A stretch of DNA of 64,000 nucleotides. It comes from an uncultured Bdellovibrionales bacterium (GTDB lineage: Bacteria; Patescibacteriota; Minisyncoccia; Moranbacterales; UBA1568). A program made the position numbers and the translations under genes. Under the pieces are notes generated by a model that did not search any database, was not told the origin of the DNA, and saw nothing but the letters and a program-made list of their open reading frames with translations. The stretch spans positions 169,110 to 233,109 of the forward strand of contig CAYLJX010000001.1 of the NCBI GenBank assembly GCA_964384235.1, written 5' to 3'. Shown in pieces: positions 4,010 through 56,465 of this stretch. The number at the start of each line of letters is the position of its first letter. Position 1 is the stretch's first letter.

Positions 4010-4086
4010 GGACAATTAGCTCAGTTGGTTAGAGCACAGCATTCACATTGCTGGGGTCGCTGGTTCGAATCCAGCATTGTCCACCA
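4010..4086 (+). tRNA. tRNA-Val (anticodon CAC), CCA encoded
   Basis: Cloverleaf read by eye: acceptor GGACAAT/ATTGTCC, D arm GCTC..GAGC, anticodon stem CAGCA/TGCTG with loop TTCACAT, T arm GCTGG-TTCGAAT-CCAGC, 3' ACCA. Confidence 0.85.
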
Positions 4087-5299: not shown

Positions 5300-6625
5300 A
5301 TGCTCGATATCCAATTCATCCGTGAGAACCAGGACGCCGTCCGGAAGGCCGCTGCCGATAAGGGGTTGGATTTCGATCTGGCTACTCTCTTGGCTACGGA
5401 TCAGCAGCGAGTCGCACTTCTCCAGGAGATCGAAGAATTGAAGTCTCTCAAAAACGACATCAACGATCTCATCCAACAGACCAAGACGCAGGAAGAGCGA
5501 GATGAGATCATCATGAAGGGCAAGGAGATCAAGGCCAAGCTCGATGAACGGGAACCGCAGTTCACGGCGGTGAAGCGTACCTATGATGCCTTGATGGCCC
5601 AGGTGCCCAACATCCCATCCGAAGACACGCCCGTCGGGAAGAGCGACGCGGAAAACAAGGAAGTCTACGTCTCCGGTCCGGTGCCGACGTTCGAGTTCAC
5701 GCCGCGCACGCACATCGAACTCGGGAAGATGCTCGATATCCTCGATCTGGAACGAGGTGCCAAGGTGTCCGGCTATCGCGGCTACTACCTCAAGAACGAA
5801 GGCGCTCTCCTCGTCATGGGACTGATGAGCTATGCGCTCCAGAAGATGGTGGCCAAAGGTTACACGCCCATGATTCCGCCGACCTTGGTGAAATCTTTTC
5901 CGCTTTTCGGGAGCGGCTACTTCAAGGGTCTCGAGTATAACGGCGAGGTGGACGAGATCTACCAGGTCGCGACCTCTGACAAGGAAGCGGACGGCAGCAT
6001 GAGCAAGGAGCAGAAATTCCTCGTTGGGACCGCCGAACCGTCGCTCCTCTCATACTATTCCGGCGAGATCCTGGAGGAAAAGGATCTGCCGCTGCGACTC
6101 GCGGGATACAGCCAGTGCTATAGAAGCGAAATCGGTTCCTACGGCAAGGATACCAAGGGCATGTACCGCGTGCATGAGTTCATGAAGGTGGAACAGGTGG
6201 TGATCGCGCCGACGGATCTCGAGCTCGTCGACAGGCTGCAGGAAGAGATGATCGGTATTTCGGAGGAGATGCACCGGGAGCTTGGCCTTTCCTATCGCAA
6301 GATCCAGATCTGCACCGGGGACATGAGCGCCGGCAAGTACCGCGCGTTCGATCTGGAGGCCTGGATGCCCGGGATGAACCGCTACGGCGAGACCGGATCA
6401 GCCTCGAACTTTCTCGATTGGCAGGCGAGGCGTCTCAACGTCAAATACAAGGACGCCAAGACCGGCGAGAAGAAGTATGCCTATCTTCTCAACAACACCG
6501 CGCTCCCGAGTCCGCGCATCTTCATCGCCATCCTCGAGAATTACCAGCGCGCCGACGGTTCGGTCGTCATCCCGGAAGTCCTCCATCCCTTCGTCGGGAA
6601 GGAACTGATCGAACCGAAGAAGTGA
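5300..6625 (+). CDS. serS: Seryl-tRNA synthetase
   Basis: N-terminal coiled-coil (MLDIQFIRENQDAV...) and class II core (RVHEF.KVEQV, GDMSAGKYRAFDLEAWMPG, TALPSPRIFIAILE). Confidence 0.95.
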   Translation: MLDIQFIRENQDAVRKAAADKGLDFDLATLLATDQQRVALLQEIEELKSLKNDINDLIQQTKTQEERDEIIMKGKEIKAKLDEREPQFTAVKRTYDALMAQVPNIPSEDTPVGKSDAENKEVYVSGPVPTFEFTPRTHIELGKMLDILDLERGAKVSGYRGYYLKNEGALLVMGLMSYALQKMVAKGYTPMIPPTLVKSFPLFGSGYFKGLEYNGEVDEIYQVATSDKEADGSMSKEQKFLVGTAEPSLLSYYSGEILEEKDLPLRLAGYSQCYRSEIGSYGKDTKGMYRVHEFMKVEQVVIAPTDLELVDRLQEEMIGISEEMHRELGLSYRKIQICTGDMSAGKYRAFDLEAWMPGMNRYGETGSASNFLDWQARRLNVKYKDAKTGEKKYAYLLNNTALPSPRIFIAILENYQRADGSVVIPEVLHPFVGKELIEPKK

Positions 6626-6660
6626 TGAATAGGGAAGTGTGAGATATGAGATACGAAAAA

Positions 6661-6687
6661 GACCCCGAAAGAGGGTCTTTTATTTTG
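6661..6687. terminator. Bidirectional Rho-independent terminator (serS on + strand, structured element on - strand)
   Basis: GACCC-CGAAAGA-GGGTC, followed by TTTTATTTT on the + strand and TTTTTCGT on the - strand. Confidence 0.75.
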
Positions 6688-6705
6688 GTGGGTCGTGCAG
6701 GGATC
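6688..6705. repeat. 18-bp direct repeat identical to the 3' end of tRNA-Lys (copy 1; attR/attL-like)
   Basis: gtgggtcgtgcagggatc occurs at 6688-6705 and again at 6872-6889 in the same orientation. Confidence 0.8.
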
Positions 6706-6871
6706 TCACTACTCGGCCTTCGGCCTGCGTTCTGAGAACCCACGGTTCTCAGCGCTTCGCTGCTCTCCCCCTACGGGAAAACAGATGTTTTCCCGACCCC
6801 TTTCTTGTTCGCTCCCTGCACGACTATAATCTGAAAGCCTCCCTGACAGGGAGGCTCTCACGGATTACAAT
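6706..6871. other. Highly structured 166-bp non-coding segment enclosed by the tRNA-Lys 3'-end direct repeats
   Basis: Multiple strong hairpins (GGCC-UUCG-GCC; CUGAGAACC-CAC-GGUUCUCAG; GGGAAAACA..UGUUUUCCC; AGCCUCCC-UGACA-GGGAGGCU). A 12-nt segment (ctccctgcacgac, 6812-6824) is the inverse complement of part of the direct repeat. Confidence 0.5.
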
Positions 6872-6889
6872 GTGGGTCGTGCAGGGATC
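6872..6889. repeat. 18-bp direct repeat (copy 2), overlapping the 3' end of the tRNA-Lys gene
   Basis: Identical to 6688-6705. Confidence 0.8.
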
Positions 6890-6945
6890 GAACCTGCGAC
6901 CGTTGGCTTAAAAGGCCACTGCTCTACCGACTGAGCTAACGACCC
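6873..6945 (-). tRNA. tRNA-Lys (anticodon UUU)
   Basis: The reverse complement reads GGGTCGTTAGCTCAGTCGGTAGAGCAGTGGCCTTTTAAGCCAACGGTCGCAGGTTCGATCCCTGCACGACCCA: a canonical cloverleaf with anticodon loop CUUUUAA, closely resembling textbook bacterial tRNA-Lys. Confidence 0.9.
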
Positions 6946-7029
6946 GAAACATAACGTGTCTATTCTAAAAAATTTATAGCAAGAAGTCAATTATTTTGCT
7001 ACAATACGGGCATATCAGTCAATCTCTCT

Positions 7030-8091
7030 ATGCTTAAAAAACTCTTGGCGGTCGTGGGGGGAAGCGTCCTGTTATCCGGTTGCAGTCTCAGCGTGCCGGT
7101 GCCGGGAGGGGGAGGTGGAGGGAGTCTCTGGAAATCCTCCGATGCGGGCAAGACGTTCGAGCCCAAGGTGACGGTCGATGAGAAGCGCAGGATCACGTCG
7201 GCGGATACGCTTTCCTTCGTCTTTCATCCGACGGATCCGCAGATCATCTACCTGGGAGCGCTCGAGAGCGGCCTTTTCAAGACGACCGACGGAGCTGAGC
7301 ACTGGACGCCGCTCGAATTCCCTCCGACCAAGATCTACGGGCTGACGATCGACCAGCAGAACGGCGACCGGTTGTTCGCGAGCGGTATCTATGAAAAAGT
7401 CGGCAAGATCTACCGGACCGAGGATGCCGGAGCAAATTGGACGGAAGTCTATGCCGAACCGGGACCGGGAAGCGTCATCACGGCACTTGTCTCCCATCCT
7501 GATCGTCCGTCGGTACTTTATGCCGGGACGAGCAACGGCGTCGTCATCAAGAGTGTGGATGCCGGTGTATCATGGGAGAATGTCGCGACAGCCAAAGGAC
7601 CCGTGACCAAGATTCTCATCCCGCGCGGAGCAGGGGAAAAGGTAGTGCTCCTGGTCTTCGGCAAGGGGACGATGGTTTCGGAGAACGGCGGTGGATCCTG
7701 GACGGAACACTTCGCCGCCATATCTCTCCCACAGACAGGGGAGGATACGGCGCCACAACCGGACACCATCTCGAATATCATCACGGATGTCCGTTCCGGT
7801 GCGCTCTATGCCGCCGCCAAGAACGGGGTCTTCCGCAGTCGGGACAGCGGTAAGACGTGGGAGAGTCTTCCGATCATTGAGAGTTCGCGCAAGTTCCCGG
7901 TCCGATCGGTCGCGGTCAATCCGGTGAATGGCAACGAGATCGTCTATGTCTCCGGCGCGACGTTTTACAAGTCCGTCGACGGCGGGACCAACTGGTCGAC
8001 CACGCAGCTCGCTATCGATCGCGGGGTGAGCGTCCTGGAATACCAGCCGGGAGCACCGGACACGCTCTATCTCGGATTGCGGAAATTCTAG
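7030..8091 (+). CDS. Lipoprotein with seven BNR/Asp-box repeats (predicted 7-bladed beta-propeller; sialidase/Ycf48-like fold)
   Basis: Lipobox LLSGC after the signal peptide; seven S-x-D-x-G-x-(T/S)-W/F repeats (SSDAGKTF, TTDGAEHW, TEDAGANW, SVDAGVSW, SENGGGSW, SRDSGKTW, SVDGGTNW). Confidence 0.75.
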   Translation: MLKKLLAVVGGSVLLSGCSLSVPVPGGGGGGSLWKSSDAGKTFEPKVTVDEKRRITSADTLSFVFHPTDPQIIYLGALESGLFKTTDGAEHWTPLEFPPTKIYGLTIDQQNGDRLFASGIYEKVGKIYRTEDAGANWTEVYAEPGPGSVITALVSHPDRPSVLYAGTSNGVVIKSVDAGVSWENVATAKGPVTKILIPRGAGEKVVLLVFGKGTMVSENGGGSWTEHFAAISLPQTGEDTAPQPDTISNIITDVRSGALYAAAKNGVFRSRDSGKTWESLPIIESSRKFPVRSVAVNPVNGNEIVYVSGATFYKSVDGGTNWSTTQLAIDRGVSVLEYQPGAPDTLYLGLRKF

Positions 8092-38998: not shown

Positions 38999-39260
38999 AT
39001 ACCTCATTTTAGCACGAAACAGCCTTTATTTTTCTCTTTATAAAATCGCCGTTTTAATATTTCTCCCTTCAGAAATCAGCATTTTCTTTCTCCGGCTGAC
39101 GTCGGTCACATGTGCGACGAGCAAGCCGGTAACGGTCGAGCGTGACGGATGGTCTCGACAGGACAGCTCCCCGTTCGGCAGAGTGAGTCGGACATGTTCG
39201 ACGGAAGGAAAGGGAAAGAAAAGGGATTGATTTTCTGAAGGGTATTCTGTGCCAATATAT

Positions 39261-51916: not shown

Positions 51917-51988
51917 TGGGGAGTAGCCAAGCGGTAAGGCACCAGGTTCTGGCCCTGGTATGCGTAGGTTCGATCCCTACCTCCCCAG
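51917..51988 (+). tRNA. tRNA-Gln (anticodon CUG)
   Basis: UGGGGAG acceptor paired with CUCCCCA, anticodon stem CCAGG/CCUGG with loop UUCUGGC, T arm GUAGG-UUCGAUC-CCUAC. Confidence 0.85.
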
Positions 51989-51996
51989 CACATCAA

Positions 51997-52039
51997 ATCA
52001 AAGAACGTATCCTTCTTTGGGTGCGTTCTTTGATTTTAT
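51997..52039 (+). terminator. Rho-independent terminator after tRNA-Gln
   Basis: ATCAAAGAACG ... CGTTCTTTGAT followed by TTTTAT. Confidence 0.75.
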
Positions 52040-52257
52040 CTGAAGAGTAGGAATCGAACAGTGAAAGGGGTCGGGAAAACTCCCGTTTTCCCGTTGCGGA
52101 GAGCAGCCCGTCAGGGCGCTGAGAACCGAGGGGTTCTCAGAGAGCGCCGAGTGAAACGAGAAGCGAGTGAGATCCTGCCTCCACAGTATTTCAACATAAA
52201 AAAATCGGGTGATTGGAAGGATTCCAACCACCCTTTTCATGTCATATGACCCGTCGG

Positions 52258-56324: not shown

Positions 56325-56392
56325 TGGTTTGGATTATACCATATTTCGCTGCCTTGAAAAAGAAAAACAGGTCATAGAGACCTGTCTCTTTG

Positions 56393-56465
56393 AGCCACCT
56401 GCCAGGATTGAACTGGCGACCTACGCGTTACGAGTGCGTCGCTCTACCAACTGAGCTAAGGTGGC
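56393..56465 (-). tRNA. tRNA-Thr (anticodon CGU)
   Basis: The reverse complement GCCACCTTAGCTCAGTTGGTAGAGCGACGCACTCGTAACGCGTAGGTCGCCAGTTCAATCCTGGCAGGTGGCT folds as a cloverleaf with anticodon loop CUCGUAA. Confidence 0.8.

Follow-up and report, generated by a model that had tools for sequence, protein, structure and literature searches.

Why should the 3' end of a tRNA gene be found twice, in the same orientation, with a short and tightly folded sequence lodged between the two copies? The question is raised by the tRNA-Lys(UUU) gene in 64,000 nt of DNA (termed here the window, meaning the whole stretch analysed) from an uncultured Moranbacterales bacterium, positions 169,110 to 233,109 of contig CAYLJX010000001.1. 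A sequence-only reading, made without database searches, had seen in this arrangement the classic attL/attR signature of an integrase, and had offered three identities for the enclosed DNA: a decayed integration scar, a miniature non-autonomous element, or a structured non-coding RNA (ncRNA) with a tRNA-like terminus before a terminator. The 18 bp repeat is the duplicated target of a ~184 bp insertion between C74 of the tRNA and its original CA and terminator, and the insert is composed of a spacer that forms a hairpin, the T-loop, T-stem and acceptor 3' strand of the tRNA copied in inverted orientation, and a conserved, structured core.

The same layout is repeated at more than 100 loci with arms derived from the local target, inserts have turned over at the tRNA-Lys site, the core is constrained and no mobility gene is linked to it. 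These copies belong to a large and apparently undescribed family of 90-200 nt non-coding elements in bacteria of the Candidate Phyla Radiation (CPR; Patescibacteria), which are interpreted here, with a probability of roughly 0.6, as non-autonomous mobile elements that preserve the gene ends they enter and carry an RNA-like structured core. Among the three identities first offered, the miniature non-autonomous element is the closest.

The tRNA-Lys site, filled and empty

The tRNA-Lys gene is convergent with the SerRS gene (5300-6625), the end of which faces the terminator hairpin. Read in the direction of tRNA transcription, the locus comprises:

6962-6990, minus strand: site resembling a promoter for tRNA-Lys (TTGACT-17 nt-TAGAAT), agreeing with the consensus at 10 of 12 positions
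6872/6873-6945, minus strand: tRNA-Lys(UUU), called by ARAGORN; Rfam 71.9 bits
6872-6889, minus strand: near (left) repeat copy, X, tRNA positions 57-74, from an exact repeat search
6825-6871, minus strand: spacer J, with a strong hairpin (6832-6845/6847-6860) and partly palindromic flanks
6807-6824, minus strand: inverted copy of the tRNA 3' part (GUCGUGCAGGGAGCGAAC), complementary at 17 of 18 positions to tRNA 6876-6893 (G53 to position 70)
6728-6806, minus strand: conserved family core, covariance model R1, 58.3 bits, E 9e-18
6706-6727, minus strand: 3' part of the element, a hairpin GGCC-GAA-GGCC (6715-6725) and then GAGUAGUGA, common to loci L010, L100 and L115
6688-6705, with CA at 6686-6687, minus strand: far (right) repeat copy, X', an orphan of the tRNA 3' end, reading to the original ...ACCCACCA end
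6657-6681, between the convergent SerRS and tRNA-Lys genes: original terminator hairpin, homologous to that at the empty site of relative L023

The repeat is exact at both places at which it had been reported. The sequence GTGGGTCGTGCAGGGATC occurs precisely twice in the whole 64 kb, as X and X' in one orientation, enclosing 166 bp (6706-6871), and chance is discounted by a shuffle control in which none of 100 shuffles held two or more matches, even with 3 mismatches permitted. At the near copy the discriminator A6873 is followed by C6872 and then A6871; as the repeat here runs straight into A, no CCA is encoded by tRNA-Lys. The far copy reads GAUCCCUGCACGACCC-A-CCA (...ACGACCC-A-CCA) on the tRNA strand, followed by the hairpin and T-run of 6657-6681. 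The host gene is left intact by the insertion, which has removed only the CCA formerly encoded by tRNA-Lys. Just one of the four window tRNAs (4010-4086, 6872-6945, 51917-51989 and 56392-56465), tRNA-Val, encodes CCA, tRNA-Lys, tRNA-Gln and tRNA-Thr being without it, so that CCA must be supplied in this genome by a CCA-adding enzyme.

The enclosed DNA is as densely packed with hairpins as had been claimed, containing stems of 9 bp (6732-6740/6744-6752), 10 bp (6774-6783/6786-6795) and 14 bp (that of spacer J), and the 217 nt RNA downstream of tRNA-Lys folds with z = -6.9 relative to shuffles. A UUCG tetraloop is indeed present on the plus strand, but on the strand of the tRNA the same hairpin reads GGCC-GAA-GGCC. 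The internal inverted copy of part of the repeat was also correctly identified: 6813-6824 is complementary to the far repeat at 12 of 12 positions, such that the two can pair as a 12 bp helix, and the match extends to the 17 of 18 listed above. The parts of the core follow in the order linker AAGAAA, GGGGUC, the P2 hairpin (6774-6795; CGGGAAAAC-AUCU-GUUUUCCCG), a subfamily hairpin and the P3 hairpin (6732-6752). Four promoter-like sites were found in the tRNA-Lys region, against 0.2 expected from shuffles. A scan of the region found no terminator-like site between tRNA-Lys and the 166 bp insert, so that the element is probably co-transcribed with the tRNA; the hairpin of spacer J lacks a T-run, making read-through likely.

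By its SerRS the window belongs to Candidatus Moranbacteria (CPR/Patescibacteria), its best relatives sharing 75-82% protein identity, and in these tRNA-Lys(UUU) again adjoins SerRS, in either orientation. Empty-site alleles, which the sequence-only reading had suggested looking for, are present in L016, L023 and L004, where tRNA-Lys-CCA is followed directly by a terminator, bearing out its claim that the repeat flanks inserted DNA. In the window, the sequence that comes after the far copy (AAAAGACCCUCUUUCGGGGUCUUUUU) and the L023 terminator are homologous. On the basis of these empty sites and this homology, the far copy and the terminator represent the original 3' end, and ~184 bp have been inserted after C74. 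L008 and L023 form a filled and empty pair, having the same flanks and differing by exactly one insert and one repeat.

Every insert at this site is bounded by a repeat of its own genome's tRNA 3' end, differing from the sequence in the window, and three insert families can be distinguished. Family A (GGAAUCGAAGGGCGCGAGUAG...) is found in L001, L042, the second insert of L002 and partly in L003; family B (...GGACAGAUUAUCUGUGACC) in L008, L011, L014 and the first insert of L002; and family C at the tRNA-Lys sites of the window and L010. In L002, inserts of B and A stand in tandem, with a repeat bounding each. The window and L010 have the core in common, and their hairpins differ by compensatory changes, with CUGAGAACC/GGUUCUCAG against CUAGAGGGC/GCCCUAUAG in one and GGCC/GGCC against GCCC/GGGC in a second. 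Families A and B also start with a complement of the T-loop, B containing GGGGUCGCGGAAAUC, and may be distant relatives of family C; among the loci listed they are confined to tRNA-Lys/SerRS loci, save for one family A match in L072. The larger inserts of L003 and L012 contain nothing obvious as an integrase or mobility gene in their lists of open reading frames (ORFs), which were read with no Pfam scan.

The tRNA-Lys cassette lies between SerRS and a BNR-lipoprotein gene in variable orientation among Moranbacteria, being on the plus strand in L001, L004, L007, L009 and L012-L014 and on the minus strand in the window, L002, L008, L010, L016, L023 and L042. At L009:4471-4560, in L013 (at the contig end) and at L022:4012-4125, the tRNA-Lys gene is followed by a second copy, partial or complete, with small GC-rich hairpins inserted into the T-loop and, in L022, also into the anticodon stem region; such copies represent either pseudo-tRNAs or another type of insert.

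Taken alone, this site resembles the remains of a decayed genomic island, or of a cis-mobilizable element (CIME), that was specific to the 3' end of tRNA-Lys and left a classical attL/attR scar. tRNA-like and tmRNA-like (transfer-messenger RNA-like) targets are typical of tyrosine integrases in the att-site literature, and the direct repeat from the T-loop onwards, the displaced original CCA and terminator, the tandem accretion in L002 and the empty sites in relatives would all be in keeping with such an origin. It is nevertheless made very improbable by the distribution and structure of the element, including the inverted copy of the target, which is foreign to a normal att scar.

One core at many gene ends

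The covariance model identifies exactly two strong copies in the window, at two of its four tRNAs, the second being associated with tRNA-Gln; tRNA-Val and tRNA-Thr are without one. A weaker match at 39033-39092 (16.7 bits) was rejected as a third copy, as it is AT-rich and lacks the core motif. The second copy comprises:

51917-51989, plus strand: host gene tRNA-Gln(CUG), called by ARAGORN
51995-52036, plus strand: terminator-like hairpin between tRNA-Gln and the element
52047-52059, plus strand: inverted copy of the T-loop and T-stem of tRNA-Gln (GUAGGAAUCGAAC), complementary at 12 of 13 positions
52061-52144, plus strand: second conserved core (family C), covariance model R1, 58.9 bits, E 6e-18
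52167-52186, plus strand: direct copy of the 3' end of tRNA-Gln, degenerate in sequence (GUGAGAUCCUGCCUCCACAG)

A scan of metagenomes with the exact 23 nt pattern GGGGTCGGGAAAACNNNNGTTTTCCCG recovered at least 120 further loci, and the covariance model aligned 109 copies from 100 sources, several contigs having more than one (for example, three in L137). Within 12-232 nt upstream of 77 of the 126 matches listed lies a tRNA on the same strand, and these tRNAs represent 18 amino-acid specificities (Met, Gln, Lys, Ala, Leu, Asp, Arg, Gly, Ser, Ile, His, Glu, Val, Pro, Asn, Phe, Tyr and Trp). Several matches with no called tRNA sit behind tmRNA-like 3' ends. At six loci, including L134 and L197, the element follows what resemble tRNA 3' halves missed by ARAGORN, with an ORF upstream that is LAGLIDADG-like as judged by eye; these are probably intron-containing tRNAs that also host the element.

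The common layout begins with the gene end X, a spacer that often holds a terminator hairpin, an inverted copy of X and (N)GGAAA, followed by the core; it finishes with ...CGA(C), then the gene end once more, as an orphan, and the native downstream sequence. At preferred tRNA sites X starts at G53, the border of T-stem and T-loop. Exact inverted repeats of at least 9 nt were present in 40 of 70 tRNA-linked copies, in 25 of which the tRNA side starts at G53 itself, and exact direct repeats of at least 12 nt in 45 of the 70, with 38 of these starting 4-8 nt past G53. The core lies a median of 62 nt from the tRNA end, and at most tRNA loci a terminator-like hairpin intervenes between tRNA and element. 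Whereas the 5' arm copies the local T-loop variant (for instance GGAUUUGAAC next to a UUCAAAU loop), in the 3' arm a family-wide GUGAGAU usually replaces the T-loop and local sequence resumes only after it.

At protein genes the arm sequences are unrelated to these and the layout is unchanged, with duplications of 11-88 nt. The sites are:

L090, L103, L114, L163, L169 and L172: N-termini of EF-G-type GTPases, at the AHVDxGKT codons
L116: N-terminus of protein L11
L113, L121, L185 and L187: C-terminus of protein S9
L141: C-terminus of an FtsZ-like protein

The body of the gene is always 5' of the element, meaning that genes on the same strand are hit at their 3' end and those on the opposite strand at their 5' end. 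At the opposite-strand sites (EF-G/LepA-type GTPases, L11 and others; L090, L103, L114, L116, L118, L140, L163, L169 and L172) the orphan start codon is retained, and a frame crosses the antisense element for 53-68 codons before stopping between -23 and +14 nt of the true start. This proximity in 9 of 9 cases, including ATGA overlaps in L163 and L169, suggests that the upstream frame could be translationally coupled to the gene.

This breadth of targets, the same core standing at 18 tRNA specificities, tmRNA-like genes and protein-gene ends with arms matched to each site, does not fit attL and attR at tRNA-Lys; to our knowledge, no single integrase has a target range this wide. Nor was an enzyme encountered. 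The neighbours of the tRNA-Lys copy encode, according to Pfam, an Asp/Asn-type aminoacyl-tRNA synthetase, DUF1360, SerRS, a BNR lipoprotein, RRF and an M50 peptidase, with no integrase or mobility domain among them, and only housekeeping families and the LAGLIDADG-like ORF recur within 3 kb of 120 listed loci, to the exclusion of integrases, transposases and reverse transcriptases. The core pattern had no match in 2.9 million viral contigs, which rules against a phage origin.

In 56 of 60 tRNA loci and at most of 21 other loci examined, the inverted arm is closer to the functional gene end upstream than to the orphan, as it is at most old insertions in protein genes. In L103, it matches X at 11 of 11 positions and can be aligned with X' over a 3 nt stretch only, and in L113 the corresponding figures are 24 of 26 and 9 of 12. 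Since the arm tracks the upstream copy, the persisting unit is the long hairpin formed by X, spacer and inverted X, and the closing helix of arm and far repeat was for the same reason dropped as a candidate for a conserved, selected structure. The hairpin is at its most extreme in L141, a near-perfect snap-back with a 4 nt loop in which the last codons of the gene have been rewritten.

Such long (quasi)palindromes, centred on a hairpin, might alternatively be by-products of replication or repair, generated when a strand folds back at a terminator or T-arm and switches templates by way of another copy, with neither dedicated machinery nor function. Tracking of the upstream copy by the inverted arm is what fold-back synthesis would produce, as is the snap-back in L141, and there are suitable similarities at the junctions, the CGAC at which the core ends being similar to the UCGA(A/C) of T-loops and, in GTPase genes, to GUCGAC or GUCAAC (as DNA, TCGA(A/C), GTCGAC and GTCAAC). 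A scarcity of G-U pairs in the core, described below, likewise points to hairpins at the DNA level. Yet more than 100 recoveries of one covarying core, and of one preferred position in tRNAs, would be hard to obtain from rare accidents each requiring multiple switches unless selection or a dedicated mechanism were at work, and such an origin is considered improbable.

The core itself is ~70 nt in length and has the form GAAA-GGGGUC-[CGGGAAAAC-N4-GUUUUCCCG]-GYGGNGGAA-[covarying hairpin]. In an alignment of 70 cores, GGGGUC is invariant, the P2 palindrome CGGGAAAAC-N4-GUUUUCCCG is invariant or nearly so, and a G-YGG-N-GGAA strand precedes the P3 hairpin, which is formed around AACC-loop-GGUU. 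Double, compensatory changes occur at all eight P3 pairs in the alignment of 109 copies; 94.6% of P3 cells are paired, compared with 84.8% in shuffles (0 of 500 reaching the observed value) and 29-66% in slid controls, although these counts lean towards structure because the alignment was fitted to the covariance model. In mutual information the strand after GGAA covaries with P3, and GG-N-GG with the P3 loop, signals with which subfamily structure is confounded; the nucleotide after GGAA and one P3 position, for example, are G-C in 39 copies, A-T in 29 and T-G in 7. G-U pairs are nearly missing from P3 (5 of 786 cells in alignment A3, of 109 copies), a scarcity compatible with helices that have to form in both strands or in DNA. 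The core is therefore under constraint, with covariation. A decayed scar, the first of the identities originally offered, would consist of random residual DNA, and not of a conserved and covarying unit.

These features also invite the view that the element is a cis-acting functional RNA module and not mobile, forming part of the transcripts of tRNAs and other highly expressed genes: for example, a self-cleaving ribozyme, a processing platform for RNase P, RNase III or RNase Z, a terminator or a stability element. The inverted arm would then pair with the gene 3' end or the orphan, and selection or gene conversion would keep the arms matched to the gene. The invariant, unpaired, purine-rich strands beside a covarying hairpin, and the columns that covary outside helices, are what might be expected of such an RNA. 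In the window no terminator separates it from tRNA-Lys, the transcripts are much more stably folded than their shuffles (z = -6.9 and -9.8), and the 12 bp closing helix with its ...CCACCA tail resembles an acceptor/T-arm minihelix. The tRNA-like terminus of the ncRNA proposed by the sequence-only reading does exist before the terminator, but ACCCACCA is simply the original tRNA 3' end. A terminator-like hairpin parts the tRNA from the element at most tRNA loci, the element is antisense to the host mRNA at opposite-strand genes, leaving no single RNA polarity, and so few G-U pairs are unusual for a helix that is purely RNA. No Rfam ribozyme or processing element was matched, and the turnover of the site by unrelated inserts, like the target duplications at protein genes, needs an insertion process in any case. 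A purely RNA-level role is accordingly regarded as possible but doubtful.

Proposed mobility and possible roles of the core

The favoured interpretation is thus that the element is or was mobile. Mobilisation would have been in trans, unless the copies arose by fold-back copying and template switching or by short-homology recombination, and the core, perhaps in the form of RNA or of a folded single strand of DNA, would be the part recognised or needed in this process. It could act as a site for a protein or recombinase, as a folded single-stranded DNA, as a guide scaffold or as a ribozyme. Two routes, not mutually exclusive, can be envisaged. In the first (a), a broken or nascent strand would fold back at the terminator or T-arm and copy X; copying would then proceed into the core and re-enter the target at a short similarity, such as those noted at the end of the core. 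In the second (b), of Campbell type, a unit consisting of X, spacer, inverted X and core would recombine at X, a conserved short sequence. Recombination by route (b) would explain why orphan and functional copies differ mostly by synonymous changes at EF-G-type, L11 and similar sites.

Those differences nevertheless belong with a number of observations that weigh against mobility as the explanation. In L103 and L116 all 14 N-terminal residues compared are identical between orphan and functional copies, with DNA identities of 78% and 91% respectively; as synonymous differences fit transfer between genomes or selection on the orphan, duplication in situ is not proven. No transposition intermediate, enzyme or recent pair of identical copies was seen, and the exact 23 nt pattern used in the scan biased the sampling. 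In four contigs from other samples with identical SerRS there is no difference from the window over 6626-7030, so that the element is fixed in the sampled population; a fifth contig of the same species (L205:1690-1700, equivalent to window 6779-6783) has an A-run 1 nt shorter, giving a P2 stem of GGGAAAC, through either sequencing error or polymorphism. In a longer subfamily the whole 5' hairpin (AAGACUCCCGCCA...UGGCGGAAGUCU) and an extra 3' domain are common to three different loci (L132, L166 and L192), hence this hairpin travels with the element and is not derived from the target. Finally, four core-only copies (L097, L129, L138 and L150) have neither arms nor duplication, and their ...CGAC abuts position +1 of a downstream tRNA, one of the cores being situated between tRNA-Ile and tRNA-Ala; these fit an RNA module within tRNA transcripts better than an insertion footprint.

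A more specific mechanism can be put forward tentatively, and is thought unlikely in this particular form: a structured RNA or folded strand, encoding no protein and carrying its own copy of the target, the inverted arm, might programme a host-encoded recombinase or polymerase acting in trans to place the unit at conserved gene ends, with the insertion rebuilding the gene end and the core possibly being a ribozyme. If the inverted arm does guide, or the core does catalyse, organisms of minimal genome would possess a new, programmable mechanism of insertion. Irrespective of mechanism, the element is conserved and abundant, adjoins a large share of the tRNAs in some CPR genomes and has no entry in Rfam or in the literature searched. 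It shows how essential genes (tRNA, tmRNA-like, EF-G-type GTPase, L11, S9 and FtsZ-like) can take up DNA at their ends without being killed, and the tRNA 3'-end repeats it leaves would be misread as integrase att sites by tools for finding islands.

Relationship to known elements

Searches for a described relative were negative. At the gathering threshold, Rfam 15 gives only tRNA matches in the window, and permissive searches, extended to E = 10 in the window region and to E = 1 at four other loci, added no relevant match. Hammerhead, hepatitis delta virus (HDV)-like and twister cores, and segments of RNase P and tmRNA, were considered and set aside as showing only a vague likeness by eye, with no support from Rfam. 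No literature on the element was found, even with the core sequence string included as a query. Group I introns have been described in the anticodon loops of Patescibacteria tRNAs, with no group II introns detected in the phylum (PMC13011429); there was no Rfam intron match here, and the host gene is intact with its end duplicated, unlike the arrangement at a group I or group II intron.

The greatest resemblance is to integrative elements that target tRNA and tmRNA genes, and to CIMEs, with which the element shares insertion at the 3' end of tRNAs from the T-loop, a replacement gene end, direct repeats, tandem accretion and empty sites. It differs in its size of 90-200 nt, in having no integrase nearby, in its dozens of targets, including protein genes, in the extra inverted copy of the target and in duplications of 11-88 nt. 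The direct repeats of an integrase island are present, but specificity for a single attB is not, and no cognate integrase was found among the window neighbours or recurring within 3 kb of the 120 listed loci. Miniature inverted-repeat transposable elements (MITEs), Rickettsia palindromic elements, Correia elements and repetitive extragenic palindromic (REP) sequences and REPINs are similarly small, non-coding, hairpin-rich, multi-copy and non-autonomous, and Rickettsia palindromic elements are also tolerated at or inside essential genes. In contrast to MITEs and other small repeats, this element has a strict orientation (gene body 5'), a preference for the T-loop and RNA-like covariation. In place of family-wide terminal inverted repeats, its arms are copied anew from each target, equalling the local sequence and differing between loci, and its target duplication is long and variable (18 nt at tRNA-Lys) instead of short and fixed. 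A target duplication of variable length is also a property of target-primed retroelements resembling short interspersed nuclear elements (SINEs). A partner reverse transcriptase, none of which recurs within 3 kb of the 120 listed loci, might in that case act in trans from elsewhere in the genome; no A-rich tail is visible in the sequences read.

Other parallels are with structured nucleic acids. In the IS110 bridge RNA, and in the omega RNAs of IscB and TnpB, a scaffold adjoins a segment related to the target, as the core adjoins segments complementary (5') or identical (3') to its own; by analogy with guide RNAs, such an arrangement could in principle programme the choice of target. Unlike these systems, there is no such gene adjacent, no Rfam similarity, and the putative guide is everywhere the local flank. 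The attC sites of integrons and attP of CTX-phi also use an inverted repeat to fold one strand into a duplex site, and hairpins free of G-T pairs would fit DNA folding of this sort, but those are fixed sequences recognised by IntI or XerCD, whereas the duplex sequence of this element is arbitrary. HDV-like 'theta' ribozymes are small structured RNAs found 3' of phage tRNAs, and minihelices that mimic tRNAs also exist. The element is comparable in being a structured unit 3' of tRNAs, with a closing helix and NCCA tail like an acceptor/T-arm, but differs from theta ribozymes in not abutting the tRNA end, from which it is often separated by a terminator, in matching no ribozyme model and in occurring at protein genes and in antisense.

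The element therefore resembles tRNA-targeting integrative elements most closely, and also MITEs and Rickettsia palindromic elements, yet departs from the defining properties of each. As the integrase, single target, fixed repeats and fixed duplication that mark these groups are absent, it is classed here with the small non-autonomous insertion elements.

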